Counted from the first letter of the stretch, positions 6,029 through 34,070 are shown. The stretch is 64,000 nucleotides of DNA from Candidatus Poseidoniaceae archaeon (GCA_965659685.1 CBFHXB010000011.1:8595-72594), one strand, 5' to 3'. Notes: generated from the letters alone by a model not told the origin. Made by a program: numbers and translations.

Positions 6029-6029
6029 T

Positions 6030-9860: not shown

Positions 9861-11066
9861 ATGACGGCGCGACGGGCACCGTTCACCATGGGACGGTGGC
9901 CGGTCGCGGCAAGCCTCATGCTGATGATGGTGGCTTCAAGCCTGGCCGGTTGCGTCACGGAAGGGACAGAAGAAAGCGGCTTGGACGCTGTGTTTACCCT
10001 CTCTCCTGCGAACAACATCCGTGTCGGTGACACGGTGGCCTTCGACGCCTCCGGGTCATTGCCCAACGACGGCTCGCTGAGCTACCGTTGGGATTTCGAT
10101 GGAAACGGCACCGTGGACGCCACGGGTCGAACCGCGGAGTGGACCTTCGGCGCAGCGGGCAGTTTCACGGTCGTCCTGACGATCTCTGACGGTGTGCGGT
10201 CCGCAGAGGCCACCCGGGCGGTGGACGTCGTGGAAGCCTCGGCCGAAGCCCCGACGGCCAGCATCAGCCTCGACGCTTCATCAGAGTTCGATTGCCTCGG
10301 CGAGGACGTCACGGCCAATTCCTACATCCTGATTTGGATGTGTGAGGACGACAAAGAAACGTCCGACCGTACGATTTCCGCCACGACCACGGTGGTGCTC
10401 GACGCGAGCGATTCCGATGCGGCGACATCGGACGATTACATCACCGAATGGGCATGGGACCTCGCGCCGTCCGAAGACGAGGACGGGGACGGAGATTCGG
10501 AAAACGACGCCGACCTTGAGGGAGAGACCGTGGATTGGACCTCAGTCGCTCCAGGGGAGTACGAAGTGGTCCTCACGGTAAAGAGCAGCAAGGGCATGAC
10601 GAGCACGGACGAGGTCAAGGTGCACGTGAACTACGCAGGAACGTGGACCGATTTTGAAATGGGGGGCAACAGTTCCTCTGGACCCGCGCAACTCGATTTT
10701 GACGTGACCGTGGTGTACGACCGTGACTCTGGAAACACCATCCGGAAGGCCATCGCGGAATTGTCCTACCCGAAACAAGACGACGACTGGGTCGTCGGTG
10801 GCACCCAACAGCAGAACAACAACCGCTTGGAAGTCTACGTCTTTGACGAGGAGAACGAGGAGGTCGTGAATTCCTCAGAGATCGGCGACGATCAACGCGA
10901 GGACGACAATTGCGACAGCGACGACTACTGCCTGAGCCTTCCCTTGTCGTCCTACTTGATGACGGACACCACGCACGGTGATGGGGAGTGGACGATGACC
11001 ATTCACAACGACCGTTGGAACGACATCAAGGTCACACAATTCCGCATCGTTCTGGAGTACAAGTGA
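9861..11066 (+). CDS. acidic secreted lipoprotein with PKD domains
   Basis: A signal peptide ends in the lipobox-like 'SLAGC'. The PKD signature 'YRWDFDGNGTVD...FTVVLTISDG' is followed by a second PKD-like module 'YEVVLTVKSSKG'. The composition is very D/E-rich. Confidence 0.55.
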   Translation: MTARRAPFTMGRWPVAASLMLMMVASSLAGCVTEGTEESGLDAVFTLSPANNIRVGDTVAFDASGSLPNDGSLSYRWDFDGNGTVDATGRTAEWTFGAAGSFTVVLTISDGVRSAEATRAVDVVEASAEAPTASISLDASSEFDCLGEDVTANSYILIWMCEDDKETSDRTISATTTVVLDASDSDAATSDDYITEWAWDLAPSEDEDGDGDSENDADLEGETVDWTSVAPGEYEVVLTVKSSKGMTSTDEVKVHVNYAGTWTDFEMGGNSSSGPAQLDFDVTVVYDRDSGNTIRKAIAELSYPKQDDDWVVGGTQQQNNNRLEVYVFDEENEEVVNSSEIGDDQREDDNCDSDDYCLSLPLSSYLMTDTTHGDGEWTMTIHNDRWNDIKVTQFRIVLEYK

Positions 11067-11109
11067 CCCGTTTCTCCGCCGCATGACCTTCGGCGAGGGC
11101 AGCGTGGAA

Positions 11110-11117
11110 TTCAAATA
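11110..11117 (+). promoter_or_regulatory. candidate TATA-like box upstream of EF-1alpha
   Basis: TTCAAATA sits in an otherwise GC-rich spacer 40-47 nt upstream of ATG 11157. A GGAG lies ~10 nt before the ATG. Weak evidence, based on position only. Confidence 0.3.
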
Positions 11118-11156
11118 GGGGAGTTCAGTCGGCGACTCGCACAGGAGTGTATTACC

Positions 11157-12452
11157 ATGCCATCGCAGTGGGAAGACAAGAAGAAGCCACACCGCAACAT
11201 CGTGTTCGTTGGTCACGTTGACCACGGAAAGTCGACCACCGTTGGTCGTCTCCTCCTCGACTCCGGTCACATTGAGGGACACGTCATTGAGAAGAACGAG
11301 AAGCTCGCCGCCGAGCAGGGCAAGGCCGGATTCGGTCTCGCTTACGTGATGGACGGGCTCAAGGAAGAGCGCGAGCGTGGAATCACCATCGACGTCGCCC
11401 ACAAGGAGTTCTTCACCCCGAAGTACTACTGGACCGTCATCGACGCTCCCGGTCACCGCGACTTCGTGAAGAACATGATCACCGGTGCCTCCCAGGCCGA
11501 CACCGCTGTGCTGCTCTGCGCGGCCAACGACGGTGTCAACGCCCAGACCAAGGAACACGCGTTCCTTGCTCGCGTGCTCGGTGTGAAGGAACTCATCGTC
11601 CACGTCAACAAGATGGACATTTCCGGTGTCGACTGGGCCGAAGAGAAGTACAACGCCACCAAGACCGAGGTGTCCAACCTCCTCAAGATGGCGGGCTTCG
11701 GCGGTCAACTCGACCGCATCCCCTTCATCCCCGCGTCCAGCCTCAACGGCGACAACGTGTACGAGAAGTCCGACAAGTGCCCCTGGTACAGCGGACCCAC
11801 CCTGTTCGAAGCCATCGACGCTGCGGCCATGCCCGACAAGCCTGTGGACAAGGCCCTCCGCCTGCCCATTCAGGACGTCTACAAGATTGGCGGCATCGGT
11901 ACCGTGCCCGTCGGCAAGGTCGAGACCGGCATCCTGAACGTCGGCAAGACCGTGATCTTCAACCCCAGCCAGAAGTCGGCTGAGGTCAAGTCCATCGAGA
12001 TGCACCACACCATGGTCGACAAGGCTGAGCCCGGCGACAACGTCGGATTCAACGTCCGTGGCCTCGCCGCCACCGACATCCGCCGCGGTGACGTTGCTGG
12101 CTACTCTGACAGCGAACCCACCTTCGTTCGCCACGACGAGACCTTCGTCGGACAGATCCAGCTCATGGACATCCCCAAGGCCGTCTCCGTTGGATACACC
12201 CCGGTGTTCCACGCCCACACCGCTCAGGTCGCCGTGCGCTTCCAGGAACTCCTCGAGAAGACCAACAAGGCCGGCAAGGAGGCCAACCCCTCCTTCCTGA
12301 AGACCGGTGACGCGTGCCTCATCCGCTTCCAGCCGACCAAGCCGATGGCCATCGAAGCCATGGAGACCTTCCCTGAACTCTCCCGCTTCGCCATCCGTGA
12401 CATGGGCAAGACCGTCGCTGCCGGCGTCTGCCTCAAGGTCGAGAAGAAGTGA
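11157..12452 (+). CDS. tuf: translation elongation factor EF-1alpha (aEF1A)
   Basis: 'GHVDHGKSTTVG', 'DAPGHRDF' and 'NKMD' are present, with full-length similarity to archaeal EF-1alpha. Confidence 0.97.
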   Translation: MPSQWEDKKKPHRNIVFVGHVDHGKSTTVGRLLLDSGHIEGHVIEKNEKLAAEQGKAGFGLAYVMDGLKEERERGITIDVAHKEFFTPKYYWTVIDAPGHRDFVKNMITGASQADTAVLLCAANDGVNAQTKEHAFLARVLGVKELIVHVNKMDISGVDWAEEKYNATKTEVSNLLKMAGFGGQLDRIPFIPASSLNGDNVYEKSDKCPWYSGPTLFEAIDAAAMPDKPVDKALRLPIQDVYKIGGIGTVPVGKVETGILNVGKTVIFNPSQKSAEVKSIEMHHTMVDKAEPGDNVGFNVRGLAATDIRRGDVAGYSDSEPTFVRHDETFVGQIQLMDIPKAVSVGYTPVFHAHTAQVAVRFQELLEKTNKAGKEANPSFLKTGDACLIRFQPTKPMAIEAMETFPELSRFAIRDMGKTVAAGVCLKVEKK

Positions 12453-20254: not shown

Positions 20255-20338
20255 GACGGAGTTCCCGAGCGGTCAAAGGGGGTGGACTCAAGATCCTCTG
20301 CTAAGGCTTCGCAGGTTCGAATCCTGCCTCCGTCACCA
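20255..20338 (+). tRNA. tRNA-Leu (anticodon CAA), type II with long variable arm, CCA encoded
   Basis: I folded it by hand. The acceptor is GACGGAG/CTCCGTC. The anticodon stem is GTGGA/TCCTC with one U-U mismatch, and the loop is CTCAAGA. The T arm is GCAGG-TTCGAAT-CCTGC, followed by discriminator A and CCA. Confidence 0.8.
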
Positions 20339-20441
20339 CACTCTTCCATCATGCATCGCAGGATTCCACACCGAGGTCAAGGAACCCCTCGAGGGTTCGC
20401 AGGTCAGAACCAGCCCATCTGGGGCGGTGTTGGAAGGAAAG

Positions 20442-20525
20442 TGCGGGGAGCAGGATTCGAACCTGCGAACCGTTGAGGACTGCGACCTGAACGCAGCGCC
20501 GTTGACCAAGCTTGGCGATCCCCGC
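20442..20525 (-). tRNA. tRNA-Leu (anticodon CAG), type II, no encoded CCA
   Basis: The reverse complement folds cleanly. The acceptor is GCGGGGA/TCCCCGC and the D arm is GCC...GGC. The anticodon arm is CTGCG-TTCAGGT-CGCAG, there is a long variable arm, and the T arm is GCAGG-TTCGAAT-CCTGC. Confidence 0.9.
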
Positions 20526-20572: not shown

Positions 20573-21289
20573 TTACTCCGAGGCCAAAATGGCCTCGACC
20601 AAAGGCGGGAATGTCGCCCCATGAGGTTCGGGTGAAGCGACGGAAGCGACCGCCGCAACTTCGGGAAATGCACCGCCCACCGCGATCGACCAACCCACCA
20701 ATTCGAACATGCTCAGATCGTTTGGTGCATCTCCGACCGCGAGGACGTCGTCTGGGGAAAGGTCGAGGCGATCCAGCACCTCAGCGAGCCCTTGTCCCTT
20801 GGACAAGCAGGGGTCCATCACGTGGATGGCGAAACCGGTTCGCAACACCGTGAGGTGCGACCAGCGTGAATCGGACAACGCGGCTTGAATCGCTTCCATG
20901 TCTTCACCGGTCTTGAGGCACCATTCGGATTCCCGCCAGCGGTTGGTGGCGATGCCATCTGCGTCGATGCCTGGAAGTTGTTCTGCGACCCACCTGCATG
21001 CGTCCTCGGCTTCGCTTCCTTGGGCACGGAGCACGACCTCACCGTTCGGGTACCACAACACGCCTCCGTTTTCGCAGACCAGGGGGCCGCTTAACCCAAT
21101 GAAGCGCCAGAGTCCGTAGGCGATGGGTCGGGTGTTTCCGGTGCAGATGACAACGGGAATCCCAGCGGCCTCCAAAGCCCTCAGCGCCTCAACTGCGCCA
21201 ACGTGCAGCCGCTTGTTGGCGTCGGTCAAGGTCCCGTCAATGTCCACGGCCACCAGTTTTGGCCTCCATCCCTCGGGCACCCATTGCAT
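20573..21289 (-). CDS. HAD-IIB phosphatase (archaeal phosphoglycolate phosphatase/Cof-like)
   Basis: 'KLVAVDIDGTLTD', 'VVICTGNTRP', 'ENGGVLW' and 'AVGDAPNDLSMF' are present. I prefer ATG 21289 to the track start 21367, which would leave only 24 bp to the divergent ATPase start. Confidence 0.7.
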   Translation of the reverse strand: MQWVPEGWRPKLVAVDIDGTLTDANKRLHVGAVEALRALEAAGIPVVICTGNTRPIAYGLWRFIGLSGPLVCENGGVLWYPNGEVVLRAQGSEAEDACRWVAEQLPGIDADGIATNRWRESEWCLKTGEDMEAIQAALSDSRWSHLTVLRTGFAIHVMDPCLSKGQGLAEVLDRLDLSPDDVLAVGDAPNDLSMFELVGWSIAVGGAFPEVAAVASVASPEPHGATFPPLVEAILASE

Positions 21290-21391
21290 GGGATTCAGTG
21301 GGTTGGCCTCCTCCTTAGGGGTTCGTGCATCGTGCGGCTTGAACACGTGCTTGGTGGGAGGATTCATGAGAACCGAACCGGTCCGAAGGTC

Positions 21392-24046
21392 ATGGTCGAT
21401 GACGACGAGGTCTTCATCGACATTGCCGACGGGACCGTCACCACAACCCTCAGGTCCTCAACGCCGATCCCCGAGCCGGCGCCAGAACCGAGGCAGGTCG
21501 TGGCTGAAACGACCACAAGCGGCCCGGTGCTTGAGGCGGAAATTGTGGCCGAGGCCACCGGCCAGTACGAAGTGACATGGCCCTTGTTGGGCATGGATTG
21601 CCCTGATTGCGCTTCCAAGGCCACACGGGCCCTGAAGCACTTGGATCAGGTCTGGGCCCCCGTCATCTCTCCGACCGCTGGGGAAGTCCGCGTGAACATC
21701 GATCTCTCGGTGGGCACCGTTGCCGAGGCCGCCCGTGTCCTCCGCTCGCTTGGGCACGCTCCAAACGTGCCTCATCAACAACTCAACGGCGTTTCTGCCT
21801 CTTCTTTGGCCAACAAGAACGGTGTCCCCATCGCGCGTCTCGACCGGCTGCTTCGGCGTCAACCTGGCGTGCTGGATGCCGAGATTACGCGTGACGACCG
21901 GGTGCTGCTCCAATTGGTTCCCGATGCTCCCGAAGGCATGGAATCCGACCGTGATGCGGCCCTCACAGGGCTTCTGGGCGCGGCTCCAAGCCTTGGTTTG
22001 GCCGATTCGGACCGGCTGCGTCCCGACCAACGCCGTCTTGTCGGTGGCGCGGTTTCCTTCGCCCTCTTTCCAATCGTGATTCTGCTTGAGATCCTTCATG
22101 CTCCGGCCCTGTTGCTCGGTGGGGTTGCAACGGTGGCGGTCGTCATCGGCGGGGCTGAGATGTTCCGCGAAGCAGCGGCCGGTCTCAAGAACCGACAAAT
22201 CGGTTTTCAGGTGCTGACTTCGATGGCCGTCCTTGGTGCCGTGCTGTTGACCATGTGGGAAGAGGCGCTCATCGTGGTCATCCTCGTCGCGTTCACTCAG
22301 CATCTTGAGGGCGACGCCTTGGTGCGGGCCCGCGAAGCCATGCAGGGTGGACTTGACCGGCTTCCGAGGACCGCCCGTCGTTCCAACAAGCCGCATCAGC
22401 AATCGTTCTCCGCACCGATGGGCTTCAGCCTCGCTTCTTCTGGCATGTCGCCGATGCAGGCGCCGCCGCCTGCGGCAGAAACATGGGAGGAGGTGCCGAT
22501 CGATTTGGTGCGGCCTGGTGACAAACTCCAGATCCGTTCAGGTGAGTTGATCCCGGCCGATGGCGTCATCGTTGCGGGAACAGGGAGCCTGGACATGGCT
22601 CCGCTGACCGGCGAATCCGTGCCGGTGGACGTGGAGTCGGGAGACGAACTCAACGCGGGCTTGGTCCTCCAGCGTGGACCTGTGGAAATCGAGGTCTCGG
22701 CGACGGGGGACGACACCCGACTTTCTGGGTTGATCGAAGCCGTGCACACCTTCCGTGAGGAACCTCCCCGCCTGCAAGGGCTTGTGGAGCGTTTCACCAC
22801 CATCTGGGTCCCCATTGTGCTCTTTGGTTCGGTCGTCATCTGGCGTGTCCTCTACCCCGACGACATCACCACCATGCTTCTGTTGTGGGTGGTCGCTTGT
22901 CCGTGTGCCCTGTTGCTGGCCGCACCGATGCCCCACGCGGCCATCCTCGCACGTGCAGCGCATCTTGGGGCCATCGTTCGAGGCGGGCATGCGATGGAGC
23001 GTCTTGCCAAGGTCGATCACGTTCTCCTCGACAAGACCGGGACCTTGACCAGCGGTCGACCGACCATCGGTGAAATCACCGTGACCAAAGGGCGTCGACG
23101 TGACACCGCCATTCGTTTGGCAGGTGGATTGGAAGTGGCGTCCTCGCACCCCTACGCCTTGGCGGTCGGCGATTTGCTTGAGTCCGAGGACCTGAAACCG
23201 ACTTCGGTTCAGGACCTCAAGGACGTGCATGCCGGCGTTGAGGGGCGCGTGCGTGGAGACTTGGTGGGCCTCTATCGCCCTGACCGGTTGCCGTCAGGTG
23301 TCACCCTCGAGGGCGAACTCGCTTCAGCCCTCGTGGTCTCCAGCAAGGCAGGACACGGCGCGAGCGTGTTGGTGCGAGGGGAGGAGTGCATCGCGCTCTT
23401 CACCTTCGTGCACGACGACGGACGTTCGGGCTCCGACGAGGTCGTGAAGGACCTCTATGCACGTGGCGTGAACGTCGAGATCCTCTCTGGAGACCTCCAG
23501 TCCGCGGTCGATCAATTCGCAGCACGCGTCGGCATGCCCAGCAAGGCAGCACATGGAGAATTGACGCCTGAGGACAAGGTTCGGTTCGTGGAACAGCGCA
23601 GCAGCACCCACGTGACCATGATGGTCGGTGATGGTTTCAACGACGCCGGTGCCCTGGCCAAAGCCGACGTTGGCGTGGCCGTGGGTACCGGTGAACAGGT
23701 CAACTTGGAAGCAGCAGACGTGTTGATTCCCGGGGACGACCCGCGGCTCATCACGACCCTCATTTTCCTCGCACGTTCGGCCAACCGCACCCTGTGGGCC
23801 AACTTGCTCTTCTCGATTGGCGTGACCGTCATTCTGGTCTTCGCGGTGATCAACAATTGGTACGACAACCTCTGGATCGGGGTGCTTGTGCATGAAATGT
23901 CCGTGATCGTCGTCATCCTCAACGGCGCCCGGTTGGCGGGAAGTGACGGCTGGTGGGACCTGATCAAGGGCACCTTCTCCGGCCTCATCGGCGACACGCG
24001 AGAGTCCATCGCGCTCTTCTCCTCACGCTTCCGCTCCTCGTCGTGA
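21392..24046 (+). CDS. P1B-type heavy-metal-translocating ATPase (Zn/Cd/Co-like)
   Basis: The N-terminal HMA motif is 'GMDCPDCASK'. It also has TM 'CPC' (VVACPCALLLAAP), 'DKTGTLT', 'GDGFNDAGAL' and a late 'HEMSVIVVILNGARL', which resembles the HEGxT of the Zn/Cd/Co classes. The start is trimmed to ATG 21392. Confidence 0.88.
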   Translation: MVDDDEVFIDIADGTVTTTLRSSTPIPEPAPEPRQVVAETTTSGPVLEAEIVAEATGQYEVTWPLLGMDCPDCASKATRALKHLDQVWAPVISPTAGEVRVNIDLSVGTVAEAARVLRSLGHAPNVPHQQLNGVSASSLANKNGVPIARLDRLLRRQPGVLDAEITRDDRVLLQLVPDAPEGMESDRDAALTGLLGAAPSLGLADSDRLRPDQRRLVGGAVSFALFPIVILLEILHAPALLLGGVATVAVVIGGAEMFREAAAGLKNRQIGFQVLTSMAVLGAVLLTMWEEALIVVILVAFTQHLEGDALVRAREAMQGGLDRLPRTARRSNKPHQQSFSAPMGFSLASSGMSPMQAPPPAAETWEEVPIDLVRPGDKLQIRSGELIPADGVIVAGTGSLDMAPLTGESVPVDVESGDELNAGLVLQRGPVEIEVSATGDDTRLSGLIEAVHTFREEPPRLQGLVERFTTIWVPIVLFGSVVIWRVLYPDDITTMLLLWVVACPCALLLAAPMPHAAILARAAHLGAIVRGGHAMERLAKVDHVLLDKTGTLTSGRPTIGEITVTKGRRRDTAIRLAGGLEVASSHPYALAVGDLLESEDLKPTSVQDLKDVHAGVEGRVRGDLVGLYRPDRLPSGVTLEGELASALVVSSKAGHGASVLVRGEECIALFTFVHDDGRSGSDEVVKDLYARGVNVEILSGDLQSAVDQFAARVGMPSKAAHGELTPEDKVRFVEQRSSTHVTMMVGDGFNDAGALAKADVGVAVGTGEQVNLEAADVLIPGDDPRLITTLIFLARSANRTLWANLLFSIGVTVILVFAVINNWYDNLWIGVLVHEMSVIVVILNGARLAGSDGWWDLIKGTFSGLIGDTRESIALFSSRFRSSS

Positions 24047-24077: not shown

Positions 24078-24470
24078 ATGAGCGAGCGGTTGGAAGTGGA
24101 ATCTTCCATTGCCCCACCCGGCCTGACGTGCCCACGCTGCGACGGCCTTCTGCCCACCGGGTTGGGAGCGATGACCTGCACCTTGTGCGAGGCGAACGTC
24201 AAGGTCGACCACCCCGGAACCCGTCGTGCGTGGAAGGAAGAGAAAGTCGCCTGCCCTTCGTGCAGCAAAGTCCTCGTCAGCGGTGTCGACCAGCGTCCAG
24301 CCTTGCTCCGCTGTGGGTCGTGCGACGAGGAATTCGTGCTGACTCCTGCGGTCCCCAAGGTGGAGGTCTCTTGCCCGTCCTGCGAGCGTCGCCTTCGAAT
24401 GCGTCGTCGCCCGGGTCGCAGGGAAATCACCTGCCCCGCATGCGACAAGCGCTTTGCCGTCACCTTCTGA
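24078..24470 (+). CDS. multi-zinc-ribbon protein (four CxxC...CxxC pairs)
   Basis: The cysteine pairs are 'CPRCDG..CTLCEA', 'CPSCSK..CGSCDE' and 'CPSCER..CPACDK'. The protein is 130 aa with no other recognisable domain. Confidence 0.55.
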   Translation: MSERLEVESSIAPPGLTCPRCDGLLPTGLGAMTCTLCEANVKVDHPGTRRAWKEEKVACPSCSKVLVSGVDQRPALLRCGSCDEEFVLTPAVPKVEVSCPSCERRLRMRRRPGRREITCPACDKRFAVTF

Positions 24471-24592
24471 CCTCCGCGCTGTCTGAGGACTTGCAAACCG
24501 GTGCGCAGTCCCTCCTTCGGGGGCAGTCACCTTATGTATGAAGAGACGAGGATGCACTCCATCGGCAGCCCTGCTGTCGGGATGGGATTTGC

Positions 24593-27112
24593 ATGGTTGA
24601 ATCGAGGTCAACTGCTGGCGGGCATGACCGTCGCAGCCTCTCTGCCTTGCGCGGACAATTCACCCGAGCCCACAGCACCAGCGCGGAGCAAGAGGGTCAC
24701 GTCAGTGCCCGCTACCGCGAGGAGGAGCGGCTTCGGGGCGAAGTGCGGCGTGACCGGCGGATCCGTCATCAGGAACTTCGCGAGCGCATCCTTGCCCAAC
24801 AAGGCAACTTGGCCATGCGGTACGAACTCGAACGCGAGCGCACGCTGCAGCAGGTCGAGCGTGAGATGCGTGAGGCGATGGAGACTGAGCTGGCCGAAGA
24901 AGGCCGGGAAGCCATCGCCCGCGAGGAAAGCCGCCTTCGAGACGAGCATTTGATGCGGCTCGAGCGTGAAATGGCGGTGCTGCGGCAACGCTACGAGGTC
25001 GAGACCGACCGCCGCATGGAAGAGGAAAAGGCGCGCATTGAGCACGACCTTCGCCAACAACTCGAGCAAGACCACGAGCATCGCTTGGACGTCGCCAGGC
25101 AACGCCTCCAACTCGAGCAAAATCAACGCCTTCACCGTCGCATTCGTGTGCTTGAGGAAGAGATCGCCCAAGAGATGGAATCCCGCTATCAAGCGCTGGA
25201 ATCCTTGGAAATCGACCGTCTCAAGGACGAGCAGGATGCAGCCCTTGCCGAGCGAGAGGACCAACTGCGTCATGGCATCCGCACCCGCCTCGAGCAGCAG
25301 GTACGTCAGCGCCTTCACCACCGGGAGGCTGCGCTACGGGCTGAATACGCGCGCCGAAGTCAACGCTTGGAAGCCGACCTTGGCGCAGAGATCCAACAGG
25401 AACTCGAGGTCCGTCTCCGACAAGACACGGAAGACCTTGAGCAGCGCATGCGCGAGGACGTGGAGTTGGCCATCGCCCGTCGTCGTGACGAACTGAGGCA
25501 AGAAGTCGAACAGCAACTTGAACAACGCTTTGCCGAGCGTCTTTCCGACCGAAAGGCCAGGCTACGGGAGCGCTTCGACCTCAGTTATGGCAAGGCCATC
25601 GACGAGGTTGAGCACGCCCTCCAAGCCCAGATCGAGGAGGAACTCGAAGCCAGCACGACCGAGGACTTCGAACGCTACAGAGAGGCGCGTGAATCCGAGA
25701 TTCAGAACCGCCTTGCCCGCTTCCGGTACGAGCGCGAGGCCCAACTCCGAGAGGAGTTGGAAGCCAAGCACGCAACGAAGCGTGAGGAATGGACGGAGCG
25801 GCTTGAACTTGAATTCCAAAGCCGTGAGGCGGCTGCCCGCAAGGCCATCATGTCCGAGGTTGACGCGAGCCTCCGCAACGAGCGATTGGCTTGGGACACC
25901 GACCTTGACCTGTTGAAGGAAGAGACCGTCCTCGAACTTGAGCTGGACATGGAAGAGCGTCTCAACGTCTTCCGCGAGCGCAAGTTGGACGAAGTCGCCA
26001 CCCAACTGGAGCGTCAACTCGACAAGCGTGAGGAAATCATGCGGAACAAGGCCCTCATCGACGTGCGCAGGAAGGAAGCACGCATTCGCGCCGAAATCGA
26101 GGCACAGCTTGGTTTGAAGCGGGCGGAAATCCGCGATCGCATCTCTGGTCTGTCAAAGAAGATGGACGAATTCAAGACCATGGCCGAGGAACGAATGCGC
26201 GAGAGCATCACCTCGCAAATCGAGGGTGAAATCGCCACCGACGAGGCCACCCTCGCCGAACGTGAGGCCGAGATGCGTCGGCTTGAGAGCACCGATCAAC
26301 GCCTCGACAAGCGGCAACAGTGGCTCGCTTCGATCTCCGGACAAGGAGGGCTAGGTCCATCGGCCCCGGCCGATGCAGCTTCCTTGGGTGCTCGCCCAGA
26401 TTCGTTGGGCGCAGCTGCAGGGCGCTCCCTCCGTGGGCCGATGGCGCAAGCGGCTCAGGCTCAACAACCGCGCATGGGCCTCTCTGGCATGCGTGCTCCA
26501 ACGTCCTCAGCCCGTTCCTTGGCGCCTTCAGCCCCCACACCCGTGGTCAAGGCCGTCAAGCAGGTCAAGACGCCTGTGGTGGCCCCAGCGGCTCCGATTC
26601 AGTCGCCTGTGACCTCTTTGGAACCTGAAGCCGGGTTGACGTCCACGGTGGTCCCGGTTGAACCCGCCATGGAGGTGGCAGAGCCCGCCACCGACGAGGC
26701 CCCCGTCGGCATCGAATCCACCGTCAGCGTGGAGGACAACGCGCTCCCCACCACGGTTGAGGCTCCAGAACCGACGATCGATTCCGTCCTTGAGGAAGCC
26801 CACGACGACGTGGCAGAAGCCGAGATGGGAGCCATGCTCGAAGACGAGGGAGCGGTGGCCACCGAGGCCCCAATGCCCACTCCCGTTGCGGCCCCGGTGA
26901 AGGCCGGTGGAGACGTGTTTGGCGATCGCCCCATCCTCCAACCGGTTCGCACCCTGCATGCCTTGGGTGCTCCAAGGGCCACGGCCCAACTCAAGCCGGC
27001 CATGCCGGTCTTGTCCCCTGCGGGCGACACCCCCGTGCTCCAGCCGGTTACCACGATGACACCGCGTCAAATCGCCCCTGTTGAGCGACTCGAACCGTTC
27101 GATGAGGATTGA
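24593..27112 (+). CDS. long coiled-coil protein with a P/A/V/T-rich disordered tail
   Basis: About 560 aa of almost uninterrupted E/R/L/Q heptad-like sequence is followed by ~250 aa of low-complexity P/A/V/T sequence. There is no TM helix and no NTPase motif. Confidence 0.65.
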   Translation: MVESRSTAGGHDRRSLSALRGQFTRAHSTSAEQEGHVSARYREEERLRGEVRRDRRIRHQELRERILAQQGNLAMRYELERERTLQQVEREMREAMETELAEEGREAIAREESRLRDEHLMRLEREMAVLRQRYEVETDRRMEEEKARIEHDLRQQLEQDHEHRLDVARQRLQLEQNQRLHRRIRVLEEEIAQEMESRYQALESLEIDRLKDEQDAALAEREDQLRHGIRTRLEQQVRQRLHHREAALRAEYARRSQRLEADLGAEIQQELEVRLRQDTEDLEQRMREDVELAIARRRDELRQEVEQQLEQRFAERLSDRKARLRERFDLSYGKAIDEVEHALQAQIEEELEASTTEDFERYREARESEIQNRLARFRYEREAQLREELEAKHATKREEWTERLELEFQSREAAARKAIMSEVDASLRNERLAWDTDLDLLKEETVLELELDMEERLNVFRERKLDEVATQLERQLDKREEIMRNKALIDVRRKEARIRAEIEAQLGLKRAEIRDRISGLSKKMDEFKTMAEERMRESITSQIEGEIATDEATLAEREAEMRRLESTDQRLDKRQQWLASISGQGGLGPSAPADAASLGARPDSLGAAAGRSLRGPMAQAAQAQQPRMGLSGMRAPTSSARSLAPSAPTPVVKAVKQVKTPVVAPAAPIQSPVTSLEPEAGLTSTVVPVEPAMEVAEPATDEAPVGIESTVSVEDNALPTTVEAPEPTIDSVLEEAHDDVAEAEMGAMLEDEGAVATEAPMPTPVAAPVKAGGDVFGDRPILQPVRTLHALGAPRATAQLKPAMPVLSPAGDTPVLQPVTTMTPRQIAPVERLEPFDED

Positions 27113-27156
27113 GCGAAGGAACGAGCCATTCAAGGCCAAGAGGTCCATGTGGCGTC

Positions 27157-29559
27157 ATGCGAGCACTGCGCGCAGCCCTGCTCTCCGTCCTGTTCGTCCT
27201 CGGGACTTTTGCTGCTTCAGGCTCAGCATCGCTCATTGATGGGGGCGAAATCCATCAAAGCCCAGAGCCCGTGGTGATGTGGTATTCCTCAGGTGGCGAC
27301 GAGGTGTTGACCCTCGACGGCGAGGGTGTGTTCATGGCCCTCCGATGGAACGGAGGCGCCTACCAAGTCACCCGTGCGGTCGACCTGAACGTGACGGTCA
27401 ACGCCGCACGCCTGGACGTTGATGCAGGGTTGTTGGCGGTTGGACATTCCAGTGGAGCGCTTATCCTCGACCTTGACACCGATCAAATCACGCAGGACAT
27501 CAGCCTACCAGACCCTGTCGACGACCTGGATTGGGACGACGACGGTGACCTGTGGGTGGTGCACAACGGCGGGTTGCGGCAAGCCGTCGAGCACGAAACA
27601 GGCGGCCCATCAGGGGTGCGCACCAGCGTGATGAGCGCAGGAATTTGTTCCTTCGTCATCCTTGAGGACGGACGTGTCCTGACCGCGGGCTTCGACAGCC
27701 GACTCCGGGTCCACACCGACGAAGGAATCCAAGATCAAGACCTGACGGGTCTGGGTGGGGCTCCGACACAACTCATCGAAGACGGTGAATTCGTTTGGGC
27801 TGGCCTTTCGAACGGGCGTGTGCTTCGATGGAACTCAAGCACATGGTCGTCCGAAGAAGTCGTCACCGCATCTGCACCGATCACGTCCCTGTCCGTTGAT
27901 GGCGACGGAGGCATGTGGGTGGGGCATCAAAACGGCATCGTCGTTCACCTTGACGCCTCCCTTGTGTCCACCCAAGAGCACCAAGCCACGGGCAAATCCA
28001 TCTCTGTGATTCCCAAGAACGACGGCACCGTTCACCTCGTGAGCGTGACGTCGTCAAACACCCGCGTTCGTCTTCTGGACCTTGACGCGGACGGTGACGG
28101 TGTGGCCGATGCCGCCGATGCATTCCCAGACGACGCGGCACAAACGGAGGACCGTGACGGGGACGGATACGGCGACAACACGGCCCTCGCGGGAGGCGAT
28201 CAGTTCCCTGACGACCCGACCCAGTGGGCCGACCGTGACGGGGACGGTTACGGTGACGAGGCCGAAGGCACCGATGGCGACATGTTCCCTGACGACCCCA
28301 ACCAATGGGAAGATGCCGACGGTGACGGCGTTGGCGACAACCAAGCCGATCCTAACGGTGACGTGTTCCCTGAAGATCCAACCCAGTGGGCCGACCGTGA
28401 CCGGGACGGCTTCGGTGATGCACCAAACGGTGTGCGCCCGGACGAGTGTCCGGACGCCAACGGGTTCTCGTCGAACGACCGTCGCGGTTGCCCCGACAAA
28501 GACCTCGATGGGTGGTCGGACCCCGATGCAAATTGGTTGGTCGCCCAAGGTGCGGACGCCTTCCCGAACGACAAGACGCAGTGGGCGGATTTCGACGGCG
28601 ACGGATACGGTGACCATCCCGACGGCACCACACCGGACGCCTGCATCACGTCTGGAGGAACTTCCGTTCGAGCCTTGGTCCCTGAACTGGGGGCCACCAC
28701 CCGATACATCAGCGAGGCGCATTACGGCTGCCCGGACCTCGACGGCGATGGATGGGCCGATGCCTCCGAGGTCGGTGAGGGTATGGCCGAGAACCCCACC
28801 GAGCACATGGACCTCGACGGTGATGGCGTGGGCGCCAACACCGACTACAACGATACCAACGCCTTGGTGATCGACATCGAGGACCACTGCTTGCTCAGTT
28901 TCGACGACCTGAGGGAGGTTTGCCTGGGATGGAGGAGCACCGAGTACCAAGATTACCTGGCCACCCTGAACGAGAGCGAGCGCAATCGAATGTCCTACAA
29001 TTACTGGAACCAGAGCCTTGCCGGCTCCTCGTCCAGTGGCGGCCTTGACATGGCCTTGGTGGCCGAGGTCGGCTTGGTTGCCGGGGGCATCTTTGTGGTC
29101 TGTTCCGTGGTGATTTTGCTCCTTGGTGCCATGACCAAACGGGTCAAGCGACCGTCCGAGGAGAAGCAATTCGACTCCTTTGGTTTCGATGAATCGGCCA
29201 ACGAGGAAGCCTTGAGTGGACAAGCCGGCCTCTCTGCCACCGGTGGTTTGGTCGACGACCTGTGGGACGACGAAGACGCGCCGGAACCCATGGGCGCTGA
29301 GGAGGCACTCGACGACGCCGAAGAAGCGCCGATAATCACCTCAATGGTGGAAGACGTCGTCCTCCAATCCTCAACACCGGCGGAGCCGTCCAGCGAGCCT
29401 GAAGCACCCGCCGCGATGGAATCCGTGGAGGAGGCAGCGGGCGATGAGCCGGAGCGTGAAGCGCCCCCTGTGCCCGAAGAAGGCTTGCCGAACGGCTGGA
29501 CGATGGATCAATGGAAATGGTACGGGCATCAATGGCTCGAACAGAACAAAGGGTCCTGA
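27157..29559 (+). CDS. secreted beta-propeller-like protein with thrombospondin-type-3-like Ca-binding repeats, one TM helix and an acidic cytoplasmic tail
   Basis: The signal peptide is MRALRAALLSVLFVLGTFAASGSAS. The N-terminal ~300 aa look like propeller blades (e.g. 'GRVLRWNSSTW', 'GMWVGHQNGIVVHLD'). More than 8 repeats of 'D.DGDG.GD...D.FP.DP.QW.D' follow, then the TM helix 'LVAGGIFVVCSVVILLLGAM' and a D/E-rich tail. Confidence 0.7.
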   Translation: MRALRAALLSVLFVLGTFAASGSASLIDGGEIHQSPEPVVMWYSSGGDEVLTLDGEGVFMALRWNGGAYQVTRAVDLNVTVNAARLDVDAGLLAVGHSSGALILDLDTDQITQDISLPDPVDDLDWDDDGDLWVVHNGGLRQAVEHETGGPSGVRTSVMSAGICSFVILEDGRVLTAGFDSRLRVHTDEGIQDQDLTGLGGAPTQLIEDGEFVWAGLSNGRVLRWNSSTWSSEEVVTASAPITSLSVDGDGGMWVGHQNGIVVHLDASLVSTQEHQATGKSISVIPKNDGTVHLVSVTSSNTRVRLLDLDADGDGVADAADAFPDDAAQTEDRDGDGYGDNTALAGGDQFPDDPTQWADRDGDGYGDEAEGTDGDMFPDDPNQWEDADGDGVGDNQADPNGDVFPEDPTQWADRDRDGFGDAPNGVRPDECPDANGFSSNDRRGCPDKDLDGWSDPDANWLVAQGADAFPNDKTQWADFDGDGYGDHPDGTTPDACITSGGTSVRALVPELGATTRYISEAHYGCPDLDGDGWADASEVGEGMAENPTEHMDLDGDGVGANTDYNDTNALVIDIEDHCLLSFDDLREVCLGWRSTEYQDYLATLNESERNRMSYNYWNQSLAGSSSSGGLDMALVAEVGLVAGGIFVVCSVVILLLGAMTKRVKRPSEEKQFDSFGFDESANEEALSGQAGLSATGGLVDDLWDDEDAPEPMGAEEALDDAEEAPIITSMVEDVVLQSSTPAEPSSEPEAPAAMESVEEAAGDEPEREAPPVPEEGLPNGWTMDQWKWYGHQWLEQNKGS
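28078..28870 (+). repeat. intragenic tandem array of DxDGDGxxD calcium-binding-type repeats
   Basis: The repeats are visible in the DNA. For example, 'acccagtgggccgaccgtgac(g/c)gggacgg(t/c)t(a/t)cggtga' occurs at ~28221 and ~28381. They encode the TSP3-like motif. Confidence 0.7.
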
Positions 29560-29814
29560 TCACGACCAGCGCACGGGAAGGTCTGCGCGAAGTTTGGCCA
29601 GTTCCTCTCCAGAATAGAGCGGTCGACCTCCTTCTTTTACCGTGCTCTGAATGAGCCACAGCACGCCGTTCCAGGCGCTCCGTGTCGCGGTGATTTCGAC
29701 GTCTCCCCGGGCGGCAACGCCCATGAGTTCTGCTTCAACGGTGGTGGGGTCGAAGAGGGCTTTCACAAGGTGGCGGGTCTCAAAGGCCACCTGAGGTGGC
29801 TTCCAACTCATCAT
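29560..29814 (-). CDS. small hypothetical protein, last gene of the ParA-RHH cassette
   Basis: 84 aa from ATG 29814, or 87 aa from GTG 29823, which overlaps the RHH gene stop. High third-position GC. I recognise no family, and RelE/ParE signatures are not seen. Confidence 0.4.
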   Translation of the reverse strand: MMSWKPPQVAFETRHLVKALFDPTTVEAELMGVAARGDVEITATRSAWNGVLWLIQSTVKEGGRPLYSGEELAKLRADLPVRWS

Positions 29815-29819
29815 GGCGA

Positions 29820-30062
29820 TCACACCCTGAATGGAGCGAGGTTCAACCGCTCGACGAGGTGGTCCACGTCGACGTCCGCCGTTGCCTTCGCACGCTCGCG
29901 AAGCAACTCAAGGCTGCCGTCCATGCGCGCCATGCGTTGGTGGCGAATGAGGTCAAGCAGGACCTCATTCACGCTCTTGTATCCGCCAAGCGAGCGCAAC
30001 GTGTTCAATTGTCTTCGTACTTCGTAGCTCACGCTTACCGAGGTCATTCCCTTCGCTGTCAT
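29820..30062 (-). CDS. ribbon-helix-helix (RHH/CopG/Arc-type) DNA-binding protein
   Basis: 'TSVSVSYEVRRQLNTLRSLGGYKSVNEVLLDLIRHQ' matches the beta-strand, helix, helix pattern of RHH proteins. It is 80 aa and lies directly downstream of ParA copy 2. Confidence 0.55.
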   Translation of the reverse strand: MTAKGMTSVSVSYEVRRQLNTLRSLGGYKSVNEVLLDLIRHQRMARMDGSLELLRERAKATADVDVDHLVERLNLAPFRV

Positions 30063-30152
30063 CGTGCATCCCGTTGGTTGGTGCCCTCTATGCGCTACTT
30101 AAGGCGCGCGAGGCGGAATGCCCCTTGAGGGCGATTTCAGGACCCCTTGCGC

Positions 30153-31115
30153 TCAGCGGCGACCCTGCGCCTCAAGGGAGACCCTTGAGGGCTCACGGAC
30201 CCCGAATTCTCGACGCATGTCCTGCACGCGGCGGTGGAATTCGCGTGCCAAGGTCCAGTATTCCAGGGAGCCTGCTCCGGCTCCGGAGGACGTGGGTTTG
30301 TTGAGCAAGACGGTCGGTGCTCCGGACCACGGTGCCTCAGCCACGTTCACCAGACGTCGAATCGACGTGCTGAACAATTTGTTCGGGATGCTGAGGGCGA
30401 CTTGGTCGCACACGTGACGCGACAGTTTGGAGCGGGCGTCGACCATGGTCATCACGACGCCGAAAATCTTCAGGTTCCGGTTGATCCTTCGCTGGATCAT
30501 CTTGACCGAGTTCATCAGCATGCTGAATCCTTCCAAGGAGTAGTATTCCGCCTGAACGGGGACCATCACCCAATTTGCTGCGCTCAGGGCGTTGATGGAC
30601 AACAGTCCGAGGGAGGGGGGTGTGTCGATGACGATGTAGTCGAAGTGGTCGATGATGGGCGCCAACGCTTCCTTGAGGCGAGTCTCACGCCCGATCTTGT
30701 GGGAGAGTTCGATCTCCGCTCCGGAGAGGTGGATGTCGCTGGGAAGCAACCAGAGGTTCTCTGTGGTCAGGGTGGCGGGTGGACGGCCCTTCTCGTTGCG
30801 CAGCATCCATGCGTTCCGCATGGAGGCCGTCAGGTCCTCAGGACCGATCAGGTACTCGTCCATCAAGGGCAATTCCTCGCCGAGATCGTTGGTCAAGAGG
30901 TCGTACGCCGTCTTTTTGACGCGCTTCTTCTCGATGCCAAAGGACGTCGCGCAGTTCCCTTGCGGATCCAAATCGATGAGCAACACCTTCGCAGGAGGTA
31001 GCCCCATCTTCTGGTGACCGCGGGCCAGCGCCGCTGCAAGGTTGACCGCCGTGGTGGTCTTCGCGCAACCGCCCTTTTGGTTGGCGACCGCGATGACCAT
31101 CTTGTACGGGTCCAT
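30153..31115 (-). CDS. parA: ParA/Soj-family ATPase (copy 2)
   Basis: It has the deviant Walker A 'NQKGGCAKTTT', plus 'LIDLDPQGNCATSFG' and 'VIDTPPSLG'. A ~40-aa insertion follows the Walker A region, and the C-terminal tail is basic. Confidence 0.85.
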   Translation of the reverse strand: MDPYKMVIAVANQKGGCAKTTTAVNLAAALARGHQKMGLPPAKVLLIDLDPQGNCATSFGIEKKRVKKTAYDLLTNDLGEELPLMDEYLIGPEDLTASMRNAWMLRNEKGRPPATLTTENLWLLPSDIHLSGAEIELSHKIGRETRLKEALAPIIDHFDYIVIDTPPSLGLLSINALSAANWVMVPVQAEYYSLEGFSMLMNSVKMIQRRINRNLKIFGVVMTMVDARSKLSRHVCDQVALSIPNKLFSTSIRRLVNVAEAPWSGAPTVLLNKPTSSGAGAGSLEYWTLAREFHRRVQDMRREFGVREPSRVSLEAQGRR

Positions 31116-31176
31116 GCCTTCACTCCCGAGACGTTGAACCTCGGCTCTCCCCTATCAACCCCGGCCTCAATCCGCA

Positions 31177-32160
31177 TCAAACGGGCTGAACCACGGGCAC
31201 AGGAACTTCGGACAGGATCTTGCGAACGATGTGCCCGCCGGTGATGCCTCGAATCTTGGCTTCGGGCTTCATCACGATCCTGTGGCTGATGACCTGCATG
31301 GCGACGCTCTTGATGTCGTCAGGCACCACGTAGGTGCGACCGGCGATGGCCGCTGAGGCACGGCCGGTCTTGAACAGGGCCTGAGAGGCACGGGGCGATG
31401 CGCCGTTGACCACGCGGTGGTCTTCACGGGTGCGCTGAACGATTTCAACGATGTACGCAAGGATGGAGGGGTCCACGTGAACGCCTTCCAGGGCACGTTG
31501 CATGGCGACGACCTTCTTGGGTTCAGTCACCTGATCGACTTCGTGTTCGTCCTTCCCTCGCATCTTTCGACGAGCCAAAATGGCCTTCTCTTCTGCACGG
31601 TCGGGGTATCCCATGCTCATTTTCATCAGGAAACGGTCCATCTGTGCCTCAGGGAGCGGGTAGGTTCCCTCTTGTTCGATGGGGTTCTGGGTGGCCAACA
31701 CGACGAAGGGGGCAGGAAGCTTGTGGGTGATGCCCTCAATGGTCACTTGCTTCTCTTCCATCGCCTCAAGCAGGGCCGCCTGGGTCTTGGGCGGAGCACG
31801 GTTGATCTCATCAGCGAGGAGGATGTTGGAAAACAAGGGGCCAGCGCGGAGCTTGAAGTCACCCGACTTTTGGTCGTACATGTAGGTTCCCATGATGTCG
31901 GAGGGAAGCAGGTCAGGGGTGAACTGAACACGCTTGAACTTGCAGCCAAGGGCACGTGCGAAGGTGTTCGCGAGCAGGGTCTTGGCCAACCCGGGGAAGT
32001 CCTCAAGAAGCATGTTGCCGTTTGAGAGGATTCCAACGGTGACACGACGGAGGTTCTCCTCTTTTCCGATGATGACCTTTCCAACCTCGCTCATGAGGTC
32101 GTTTGCAATCTGGGACACGGTGCTGATGATTTTCGCGGTGTTCGCGTCTGCTGCTTGCAT
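31177..32160 (-). CDS. MoxR-family AAA+ ATPase
   Basis: 'LLEDFPGLAKTLLANTFARAL', 'ILLADEINRAPPKTQAALLEAMEEKQVT' and 'FVVLATQNPIEQEGTYPLPEAQMDRF' are the AAA_3/MoxR signature. Confidence 0.9.
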   Translation of the reverse strand: MQAADANTAKIISTVSQIANDLMSEVGKVIIGKEENLRRVTVGILSNGNMLLEDFPGLAKTLLANTFARALGCKFKRVQFTPDLLPSDIMGTYMYDQKSGDFKLRAGPLFSNILLADEINRAPPKTQAALLEAMEEKQVTIEGITHKLPAPFVVLATQNPIEQEGTYPLPEAQMDRFLMKMSMGYPDRAEEKAILARRKMRGKDEHEVDQVTEPKKVVAMQRALEGVHVDPSILAYIVEIVQRTREDHRVVNGASPRASQALFKTGRASAAIAGRTYVVPDDIKSVAMQVISHRIVMKPEAKIRGITGGHIVRKILSEVPVPVVQPV

Positions 32161-32237: not shown

Positions 32238-34070
32238 TCATCTGGCCCAAAAGTGGTTCTCTTTTCGATGCAGTCGCACGATTTCCTCGAGAATCTCTTG
32301 TTCAACTGCCGTCAATTCCACTTTCCGGAGCCGACGCGCATGCGATTCCGGGACGTCGACAAAGAATTCGTCGCCTTCGTTGATGTGGCGCCCGACGGTT
32401 GGGCCTTGGATGGCGCAGGCCACTTCATCGCCTTGGTTTGCTTCTCGCACGTCCTCACTGTCGCGCGTACGAAGGGACTTCACCTGCCCCACTTGGGAAC
32501 CGTCTGGACGCATCAACCGTTGACCGATGTGAACGCGACCGCCAACCACACGGACCCCAATGATCGCAGGGTCGCGTCCACGGAAGGTGTGGTTTTCGAG
32601 GTACAGCAATCGGCCCGGGTGCACCAGGTCTTCCCGAGCAGCGGCTTCGGCCGCGGCTTTGGTTTCATCACGCCACGTCTCAATTTCCTCGATGATGTGG
32701 TAGATGATCTCCCCTGCCACGAATTTGACGGGTGCGTCATCCCCGGTCAGGCGGTCCGCAACCTCACGGTTCGGGGCGATGGAGAATCCCGCAATGATGC
32801 GGTTCAGGGGGTCCTTGGCCGATTCCGCGGTCAAGATGTCCCGCTTGTTCACAGGGCCAACGGTGGCCATGCGGATTGGGATGTCGAGCTGGCCCAATTC
32901 AAACGCGAGTGCTTCCAGCCCACCGATGGTGTCCGCTTTGATGACGACGCCTTCTTCGTCCAAGTCGATGTCAACCCGGCATTCCTCCCTGCACGCGGCC
33001 ATCGCTGCTTCGAGGGCTTCATCGTCCTTGGCCAACCGGACCGTGGTGCCGGCAAGGGCGCGCTCAAGGCCCTGTGCGACGATCTTCACGCCGCAGGCCG
33101 CTTCCACGTGGTCCACGCTTTCCCAACGGTCACCCGCGTCGCGCATTTCGGACATGCCTCGTGGCCTCTTCAGCCCCTTGATCCGGGTGGTTGCAGGACC
33201 GTCAGAGGTGGCGAAGACGATGCGGTCAGCCGTTCGGAGGATGCCTCGGGAGAGGATCACGTCGATCGTTTTGCTCATGCCGACTTCGTCCTTCATCTCC
33301 AAGATGGTGCCCTCGGCGTCACCCAGGGTGTCCGTCAAGCGGTCTTCGAGGAAACGTTCGGCCAAACCAACGGTCACCGTCAGCAGGTCCTGAAGGCCTT
33401 CGCCCTCCTTGGCTGACATGGGGACAAGAGCGACGTCACTGCGGAAATCCTTGATGCGGTCGTACCGTTCGAGGTTGAACCCATGCTCACCGAACATCCC
33501 CACCATCTTCCAAAACCGGTCTTCGAAGAGTGCTTGCACGTCCTTTCGCTGTTCTTGGAAGGAGGCGATGAACGCTCGTCCACGTTCGGAACGCCAACCG
33601 TGCAGGCGGTCCACTTTGTTCCCGGCCACGACGAATGGCGTTCGGGTTCGTCGAAGGATCTCCAAGCTCTCAATGGTCTGAGGCTGAAGCCCTTCCATGA
33701 TGTCCACCACGAGGATGGCGATGTCGGCCAACTGGCCCCCACGTGAACGAAGCGACGTGAAGGAATGGTGGCCAGGTGTGTCGATGAAGAGCAAACCGGG
33801 GGACTTGAAATTCCGGCCACCCATCATTGCCGCGCAGGTGTCGTTGAGCACGGCGGCGGGGACTTCGGTGGCGCCGATGTGTTGGGTGATGCCACCGGCT
33901 TCGCGGTCCATCACCGAGGCTTGACGGTCCACGCCAATGGAGCGGACCAAATCGAGCAGGCTGGTTTTCCCATGGTCAACGTGCCCGAGCACGCTGACGA
34001 TCGGTTGTCGGTTTTCACCTCGGAGTGGGGCGTCCTCTTCGGGGGCGGTTGGTTCCGCCTCGTCCGACAT
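32238..34070 (-). CDS. infB: translation initiation factor aIF5B (IF-2)
   Basis: The G domain has 'GHVDHGKTSLLD', 'DTPGH' and 'NKVD', with full-length aIF5B architecture. Confidence 0.93.
   Translation of the reverse strand: MSDEAEPTAPEEDAPLRGENRQPIVSVLGHVDHGKTSLLDLVRSIGVDRQASVMDREAGGITQHIGATEVPAAVLNDTCAAMMGGRNFKSPGLLFIDTPGHHSFTSLRSRGGQLADIAILVVDIMEGLQPQTIESLEILRRTRTPFVVAGNKVDRLHGWRSERGRAFIASFQEQRKDVQALFEDRFWKMVGMFGEHGFNLERYDRIKDFRSDVALVPMSAKEGEGLQDLLTVTVGLAERFLEDRLTDTLGDAEGTILEMKDEVGMSKTIDVILSRGILRTADRIVFATSDGPATTRIKGLKRPRGMSEMRDAGDRWESVDHVEAACGVKIVAQGLERALAGTTVRLAKDDEALEAAMAACREECRVDIDLDEEGVVIKADTIGGLEALAFELGQLDIPIRMATVGPVNKRDILTAESAKDPLNRIIAGFSIAPNREVADRLTGDDAPVKFVAGEIIYHIIEEIETWRDETKAAAEAAAREDLVHPGRLLYLENHTFRGRDPAIIGVRVVGGRVHIGQRLMRPDGSQVGQVKSLRTRDSEDVREANQGDEVACAIQGPTVGRHINEGDEFFVDVPESHARRLRKVELTAVEQEILEEIVRLHRKENHFWAR

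Follow-up and report, generated by a model that had tools for sequence, protein, structure and literature searches.

A nineteen-residue helical register in an order-specific rod protein of Poseidoniales archaea, and its possible relation to surface-protein tails

The stretch of DNA analysed in this study (the window) comprises 64,000 nucleotides from a Candidatus Poseidoniaceae archaeon (GCA_965659685.1 CBFHXB010000011.1:8595-72594), and between positions 24,078 and 29,559 it carries three co-directional open reading frames (ORFs). Their products are a 130-amino-acid zinc-ribbon protein (hereafter ZnR), an 839-amino-acid protein (the rod) and an 800-amino-acid protein (the surface protein), and the genes are separated by gaps of 122 bp (ZnR-rod) and 44 bp (rod-surface protein), all as an initial annotation of the window had described. 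The rod is a new variant among long helical proteins of structural type, distinguished by a 19/5 register that is both extreme and remarkably regular, and it is an orphan specific to the order Poseidoniales (Marine Group II). A physical link among the three products is plausible, if unproven.

The rod gene occupies positions 24593..27112 on the plus strand, and its product lacks both a signal peptide and a transmembrane (TM) helix. When amino acids (aa) 56-435 (24758..25897, +) are written in rows of 19, they form 20 consecutive nonadecad repeats that stay in register with zero insertions or deletions. Positions 3, 7, 11, 15 and 18 of the nonadecad contain 74% of the hydrophobic residues (z = 14.3), such that hydrophobic core positions recur at 19/5 = 3.8 over 380 residues. 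Fast Fourier transform (FFT) analysis yields a hydrophobic period of 3.79-3.80, with harmonics at 19/3, 19/4, 19/6 and 19/9. The same peak is seen in 20/20 rod orthologues examined, short forms of 364-401 aa included, and the hydrophobic phase, which is unchanging across aa 40-430, is kept in all orthologues. Alternative registers of 7, 11, 15, 18, 22 and 26 residues score at chance level or below, and periods 7, 11 and 15 give z values of zero or less.

A canonical heptad coiled coil was rejected as a description of the rod, given a spectral power of 0.01 at 3.5 versus 5.33 at 3.79 and a best-2-of-7 z score of -1.5. An ER/K single alpha-helix (SAH) was rejected because 25% of the residues are L/I/V/M/F/W/Y and lie in strict register, and an SMC/Rad50-type ATPase was rejected because neither Walker heads nor any Pfam/NCBIfam domain is found in the 839 aa. 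The protein had initially been annotated as an 839-aa coiled coil. It is indeed long, helical and cytoplasmic, but its period of 3.79-3.80 is not that of heptads and its last ~250 aa are disordered.

A monomer model of the rod made with AlphaFold2 (AF2) from 32 homologues (pTM 0.21) has continuous helices at aa 31-309 and 328-582 and disordered termini. Approximately 550 residues are predicted as two long helices, which would measure ~80 nm if fully extended. The segment that precedes the repeats (aa 1-55; 24593..24757, +), delimited by composition, conservation and the AF2 model, is predicted to be disordered to aa ~30 and carries a conserved L16/L19/R20 motif and an R-rich patch. Beyond the repeats, aa 436-582 (25898..26338, +) are helical in the model and have a shorter local period by phase analysis; inside this segment lies the most conserved block of the protein, the nearly invariant aa 476-520.

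The remainder of the rod (aa 583-839; 26339..27112, +) is a poorly conserved, non-helical tail that appears disordered from its P/A/V-rich composition. It comprises a ~190-aa P/A/V-rich linker followed by a terminal stretch in which repeated [VIT]-L-x-P-[VIL] motifs (~aa 780-830) precede an acidic C-terminus. Long rod orthologues from all three families of Poseidoniales distinguished here (f1, f2 and f3) have 3-6 copies of the motif in their tails, and the tail is missing entirely from the short forms. The motif-bearing stretch (window 26900-27100, aa ~775-835) resembles a multivalent linear binding motif.

A periodicity of 3.8 (19/5) is the most extreme known in coiled coils and has been found only locally, in YadA (Hartmann et al. 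2016, PMC4786415), and periodicities above 3.63 lead to right-handed supercoils (PMC8016460). The right-handed segment of the YadA stalk has the same 19/5 period as the rod, and a right-handed supercoil is implied for the latter if its helices bundle (PMC4786415, PMC8016460). However, YadA is an extracellular bacterial trimer in which the 3.8 periodicity is local, whereas the rod is a cytoplasmic archaeal protein with 380 unbroken residues and no sequence homology to YadA. Long archaeal structural rods of non-heptad type are also known from tetrabrachion of Staphylothermus marinus and from other right-handed coiled coils with hendecads (cited in PMC13580157). Unlike the rod, which has a power of ~0 at 3.67, tetrabrachion has an 11/3 period and serves as an extracellular S-layer stalk. 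Long cytoplasmic rods built on heptads include the bacterial cytoskeletal and scaffold proteins crescentin, FilP/Scy, DivIVA and PomX and the eukaryotic membrane skeletons on which receptor tails dock. Like these, the rod has long cytoplasmic helices and no enzymatic domains and is proposed to be placed beneath the membrane as an organiser of envelope proteins or ParA-type systems, but it is non-heptad and unrelated in sequence.

Searches of the PDB by phmmer, by profile and by Foldseek with the AF2 model returned nothing for the rod, and no relative outside its own family was found in Pfam, NCBIfam, PADLOC or PHROGs. A HMMER search of 1.84 billion representative proteins yielded 168 matches, all of them apparently full-length members or fragments of the rod family. 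Those homologues that bear names, all from marine metagenomes, carry the labels Candidatus Poseidonia, Thermoplasmatota or Euryarchaeota, which places the organism in Poseidoniales. The gene is single-copy and present in 40/41 Poseidoniales genomes sampled (39 in a first search, to which a short form in G030 was then added); the sole genome without it is 73% complete. A search of 20 genomes from the sister order, which belongs to the same class, did not find it. On the available genomes, the rod, ZnR and the surface protein are all confined to the order Poseidoniales.

Pfam and NCBIfam scans matched none of the three proteins to an enzymatic family, which bears out the initial statement that enzymatic motifs are lacking, and gave no match to any curated family indicative of function. 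Assignment of the individual proteins to unrelated known families had been set as a test that could refute the idea of a functional trio; none of the three is so assigned. The rod and the surface protein have no PADLOC or PHROGs match and ZnR has generic zinc-ribbon matches only, and we see no sign of a defence or viral origin for the three genes. Literature searches found no description of the rod, of the trio or of the C-terminal tag of the surface protein described below.

The surface protein gene (27157..29559, +) encodes 800 aa from an ATG; an alternative TTG at 27109 would give 816 aa. Its ectodomain (27157..29043, +), delimited from the translation, motifs and Pfam matches, has, after a signal peptide, a beta-propeller-like domain of ~280 aa, DxDxDGxxD repeats of the Ca-binding type over ~270 aa, and a stalk that contains Cys. 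A single TM helix (aa 630-660) with a K/R-rich stop-transfer sequence indicates type-I topology, and by hydropathy and charge the helix and a 141-aa acidic cytoplasmic tail with a net charge of -28 account for the rest of the gene (29044..29559, +). The type-I topology and acidic tail of the initial annotation are therefore both confirmed, but the acidity is not specific to the tail, because the ectodomain and the tail have the same pI of 4.05.

At least eight thrombospondin-type-3-like repeats had been noted in this ectodomain. Eight strict D.D.DG..D motifs (10 loose) were counted between aa 308 and 560, and their Asp and Gly columns are kept across 13 surface-protein orthologues. However, no Pfam TSP_3 match was obtained, even at E values up to 10 on the isolated repeats, although HMMER filters may have discarded one, and the assignment as Ca-type repeats therefore relies on the motif itself. 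The N-terminal domain, also noted initially as propeller-like, gives weak matches to ten different propeller families (E 1e-4 to 0.1), and the isolated domain reaches 20.6 bits against a cutoff of 20.4 for Reg_prop. Adhesion genes annotated as 'thrombospondin' are widespread in Poseidoniales as a trait scored at the KO level (Rinke et al. 2019, PMC6461757). The surface protein fits this description in its host organisms, its kind of DxDxDG repeat and its inferred role in adhesion, but no propeller-like domain, cytoplasmic tag or pairing with a rod gene was described in that study (PMC6461757).

Close to its C-terminus, on the cytoplasmic side after the TM helix, the surface protein carries the tag APPVPEEGLPNGWTMDQWKWYGHQWL (aa 770-795 of the 800-aa form, ~nt 29470-29545). 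The consensus APP(L/V)PxxGLPxGWTM(D/E)QWxWYGxQWL is conserved in 12/13 surface-protein orthologues, and the protein belongs by both sequence and topology to a class of type-I proteins with a C-terminal PP(L/V)PxxGLPxGW(T/S)M(D/E)QWxxYGxxWL. This Trp-rich tag terminates seven large type-I proteins of the genome (G000), namely the surface protein and six others of 1128-1811 aa, in each of which a signal peptide and a large ectodomain are followed by one TM helix and a tail rich in Pro/Ala. One of these six is subtilase-like by eye, and their genes lie at C4:34915-40350(-), C4:5484-10442(-), C5:9687-13073(-), C6:80845-84336(-), C8:6400-10005(+) and C15:32432-36103(+). The tag was found in 77/77 Poseidoniales genomes (1-11 copies each) and in 0/24 genomes of the sister order, and Pfam and NCBIfam have no model that matches it. 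One phyletic boundary is shared by the rod, the tag and ZnR.

The tag resembles the PGF-CTERM/archaeosortase and LPXTG/sortase signals as a short C-terminal peptide on many otherwise unrelated surface proteins. Unlike those signals, it lies on the cytoplasmic side, beyond both the TM helix and a long linker, and for this reason it is not a processing signal of the sortase type. In two loci from one genus (L030 and L032; genomes G034 and G026), the tail of the surface-protein orthologue has an additional SAP-like helix-extension-helix motif (LKAALKARGLKVSGKKAELIERLNS), which hints at nucleic-acid contact.

The initial annotation combined these features into a possible trans-envelope scaffold, in which a basic, R-rich coiled coil could bind the acidic tail; the full three-protein version of this model makes ZnR an obligate third subunit. 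In its favour, most genera have the genes side by side and in one direction, and the tail is acidic. However, by composition count the rod has a net charge of -43 overall and -26 in its helical part, because its many arginines (101 R in aa 1-590) are outnumbered by acidic residues (111 E + 33 D); only aa 1-60 are basic (pI 11.4). Because the rod is net acidic, the proposed electrostatic attraction fails, since both partners carry negative charge. In addition, the ectodomain is as acidic as the tail, the other tagged proteins have Pro-rich tails that are not acidic, and ZnR, like the surface protein, is dispensable in some of the lineages with a rod. We consider this complete model hardly credible.

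ZnR (24078..24470, +) is a basic protein (pI 8.7) with six CxxC pairs (C18, C34, C59, C79, C99 and C119), which make up three tandem zinc ribbons and not the four initially counted. Its AF2 model (pLDDT 86) is an all-beta string of hairpins in which the cysteines form structural ribbon knuckles. The sequence scores 33.9 bits against the Zn_ribbon_6 (PF07191) model, above the gathering cutoff of 25, and 10/13 of the ZnR homologues found had been annotated beforehand with Zn_ribbon_6. A Foldseek search of the PDB with the ZnR model gave nothing below E 0.01, just generic tandem zinc-finger matches. ZnR is a member of generic zinc-ribbon families: it shares the CPxC-x15-18-CxxC pattern with MJ0042-type ribbons (Pfam Zn_ribbon_4/5) and Zn_ribbon_6. 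MJ0042-type ribbons, however, are usually an N-terminal module, whereas ZnR is a free-standing triple array that is closest to a C-terminal cytoplasmic tail.

That tail belongs to a type-I surface protein encoded on contig 2 of the same genome and consists of two ribbons that are colinear with ribbons 2 and 3 of ZnR (BLASTP E 5e-9, 34% identity; hhalign 97% probability). In ZnR, the two-ribbon module of this cytoplasmic tail occurs as a free-standing copy. Only this colinear two-ribbon match was counted as homology to surface-protein tails, and single-ribbon matches of ZnR to large sister-order ORFs were rejected as specific homology because ribosomal protein L37ae scores equally. Family f2, which has no free ZnR, carries an orthologue with a two-ribbon tail, and the tail ribbons of the f2 surface protein exceed the Zn_ribbon_5 cutoff.

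These tails form a second class alongside the tagged ones, with one or two MJ0042-like zinc ribbons on the cytoplasmic side of the TM helix, and the class occurs in both Poseidoniales and the sister order. Examples in this genome are the contig 2 protein (ending near 55,600, +) and a contig 5 protein (ending near 13,950, -) with a single ribbon terminal after the TM helix; others are found in L045 (G027) and L042 (G041). Many ORFs of 1000-1700 aa in sister-order genomes match the ribbon profile, and one that was inspected has the ribbon terminal after a TM helix.

We propose, as a tentative explanation that we place somewhat short of an even chance, that the rod acts as a docking scaffold beneath the membrane. 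The rod would self-associate into a strongly right-handed coiled-coil bundle and would dock and space the cytoplasmic tails of surface proteins, of the tag type and possibly also of the ribbon type. The co-transcribed Ca-binding adhesin would be one client and not an obligate partner, and ZnR would be an accessory or a competitor at the interface between rod and tails, or else part of a metal-efflux unit. This role is the most attractive one to us because both products that flank the rod connect to surface-protein tails and because the phyletic boundary is shared. It is consistent with the overlaps or short gaps between the rod and surface-protein genes, with the promoter-like box upstream of the rod gene described below, with the register and with an order-wide single-copy rod, as well as with the coincidence of the tag and rod boundaries, the homology of ZnR to a tail and the presence of ribbon-tailed surface proteins also in f2 and the sister order. 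A more specific version, in which the rod is the cytoplasmic receptor of both Trp-tag and zinc-ribbon tails, and hence a new type of skeleton beneath the archaeal membrane, made of an extreme right-handed coiled coil, by which adhesins and proteases are positioned on the cell surface, with ZnR a soluble competitor for the ribbon-docking sites, is clearly unlikely in our estimation.

Several observations weigh against the docking scaffold, and many of them favour an alternative that we regard as nearly as likely, namely that the three genes are mere neighbours in a frozen gene order. The rod would then be an independent structural or cytoskeletal protein that acts in cell shape, division or the nucleoid, the surface protein would be an ordinary adhesin, and ZnR would be unrelated to both. 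Gene order was established by tblastn over 20 loci as HAD, P-type ATPase, ZnR, rod, surface protein, ParA, MoxR and aIF5B, and all f1 genera sampled keep this order and direction, as do the f3 genera with large genomes. The predicted synteny of the trio is thus found in these groups, but the collinearity applies equally to the entire ~14-kb block, with aIF5B, HAD and the P-type ATPase in it. Because the collinearity reaches housekeeping genes on both sides, adjacency within the trio is weak and non-specific evidence of a shared function.

Moreover, the rod persists without its neighbours. Family f2 has an 842-aa rod, with tail and motifs, located beside ParA, and has neither ZnR nor an orthologue with the propeller domain. 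Five small-genome genera of f3 carry a tail-less rod of 364-401 aa and no orthologous surface protein, and still hold 1-4 tagged proteins. ParA comes immediately after the rod gene in these genera, except in one genus where different secreted proteins follow; among the latter is a propeller and Ca-repeat protein with a TM helix and no cytoplasmic tail. Because the rod persists in f2 and in the small genomes, it is the universal element of the locus, with ZnR and the surface protein as accessory neighbours. In addition, the six other tagged genes of this genome sit on other contigs, the sister order has ribbon tails and no rod, and an acidic rod would not attract an acidic tail electrostatically.

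The view that the genes are mere neighbours must, for its part, accommodate the stop/start overlaps and tiny gaps between rod and surface-protein genes in two families, which suggest co-translation, as well as the independent ties of both flanking products to surface-protein cytoplasmic tails and the single phyletic boundary of rod, tag and ZnR. The joint loss of the rod P/A tail and the surface-protein tail was considered as proof of contact and rejected as decisive, because f2 has a long-tailed rod without a surface-protein orthologue and because the genera with short rods may go back to just one event in evolution. In small-genome genera two genes follow the short rod gene, as at locus L035 (G039; 5566-6678(-) and 6701-7867(-)). 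One product is lipoprotein-like and has pentapeptide repeats as well as a coiled coil, and the other is a membrane protein with an extracellular Ca-repeat domain and, by eye, a winged-helix-like cytoplasmic region, which could be a transmembrane regulator.

The spacing of the genes also bears on whether the trio forms one unit. The gap between rod and surface-protein genes ranges from -14 to +84 bp (14 loci, two families); the ORFs overlap in three loci (by 4, 4 and 14 bp) and are 2 and 10 bp apart in two more. Between ZnR and the rod, by contrast, the gap is 67-258 nt in most loci, with 3-35 nt in three small-genome loci. The ZnR-rod spacer (24471..24592, +) contains a conserved promoter-like box, CACCTTATGTATGAAGAGACGAGGATG (24526-24552), which shows no variation in 7 genomes of the genus and is almost invariant in an eighth, whereas the flanks of the spacer vary; three loci from minus-strand matches, which had not been re-oriented and were misaligned, were left out of account. 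A further point against the docking scaffold is that a CDP-alcohol phosphatidyltransferase gene (Pfam PF01066) separates ZnR from the rod in 5 loci from about four genera (L025, at 10548-11441(-), L027, L028, L030 and L032). A large opposite-strand ORF is inserted in one further locus.

Marine metatranscriptomes show transcription of all three genes, through low-depth contigs that come from close relatives. An RNA contig of run X30 (24391-24651) spans the ZnR-rod junction, and one of run X31 starts at 24571, 22 nt upstream of the rod ATG. No RNA contig covers the rod-surface junction, which also counts against the docking scaffold, although the contigs are too short and too shallow to resolve this junction. 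A single three-gene operon, the co-transcription expected at the outset, is favoured by the RNA contig from ZnR into the rod and by the short rod-surface gaps; the box before the rod, the insertions between ZnR and the rod in 5-6 loci and the rod-surface junction without RNA argue against it. Given the spacing, the box and the inserted genes, the trio is probably divided into [ATPase-(ArsR)-ZnR] on one side and [rod-surface protein] on the other, two units between which transcription reads through to some extent.

A similar division underlies the proposal that ZnR is a 12-Cys metal-binding or metal-sensing accessory of the upstream P1B-type ATPase and ArsR unit, unrelated to the rod. This proposal concerns ZnR only, is compatible with the other readings and is, in our judgement, somewhat unlikely. 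The heavy-metal P-type ATPase gene (21203..24046, +; Pfam E1-E2_ATPase, Hydrolase, HMA) ends 31 bp before ZnR with no AT-rich box in the gap, and other genera have an ArsR-type HTH gene between the two, with ArsR-ZnR gaps of 3-49 nt in nine genera. ATPase and ZnR are probably in the same transcription unit, and the promoter-like box and inserted genes divide ZnR from the rod. Nevertheless, family f2 retains the ATPase-ArsR pair, located elsewhere, without ZnR, and the nearest relative of ZnR is the surface-protein tail module and not a metallochaperone. The structural role of the cysteines in the AF2 model and the RNA contig that continues from ZnR into the rod gene also speak against it.

The rod might instead be a scaffold or cargo partner of the adjacent ParA/MinD-type cassette, in analogy to the coiled-coil partners of ParA-like positioning systems and with its basic N-terminus stimulating the ATPase. 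Partners of ParA/MinD proteins commonly have basic N-terminal peptides, and the N-terminus of the rod is conserved and R-rich. The rod gene adjoins the ParA cassette in 20/20 loci, those of f2 and the small genomes included, and the gene ends overlap or abut in three small-genome loci (L037, L038 and L040). However, the convergent orientation of the genes precludes co-transcription, one genus (L024) has the ParA-MoxR pair in inverted orientation with respect to the rod gene, the cassette has small partner candidates of its own, and the adjacency is explained by the collinearity of the block. We find this relationship quite improbable.

The cassette itself is a convergent unit (29560..32160, -) of MoxR, the ParA/MinD-type ATPase (Pfam AAA_3, AAA_31) and two small ORFs, and forms the right-hand boundary of the trio. 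The small ORFs (87 and 80 aa; 29560-30062, -) lie downstream of ParA/MoxR, and neither has a Pfam match; RNA contigs from three metatranscriptomes cover 29690-30056. On the opposite side, the longest ORF of the P-type ATPase, from a GTG at 21203, overlaps a divergent HAD gene by 165 nt (21203-21367). Orthologues align only from ~aa 50-120, and the true start is probably further downstream. A convergent tRNA-Leu pair (20255-20525; CAA on the plus and CAG on the minus strand) is located between the gene for a 2160-aa surface protein and the HAD gene. The window is 62% G+C, sits on contig 11 of a 1.89-Mb, 35-contig genome and includes the archaeal markers aEF1-alpha (11157-12452) and aIF5B (32238-34070, -).

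Poseidoniales are uncultured and are among the most abundant archaea of the surface ocean, and to our knowledge almost nothing is known of their cell architecture. With its ~80 nm and 20 nonadecads in unbroken succession, the rod would rank as the longest case on record of the most extreme coiled-coil periodicity, and as such is a natural test case for coiled-coil theory and design. Even if the genes are independent, the trio is reassigned to two units, the charge argument is corrected, and peptides and fragments are defined. If the rod does dock the tails of adhesins and proteases, it would constitute a new archaeal membrane skeleton and would explain the organisation of the surface machinery on which attachment to particles and degradation of proteins are presumed to depend.

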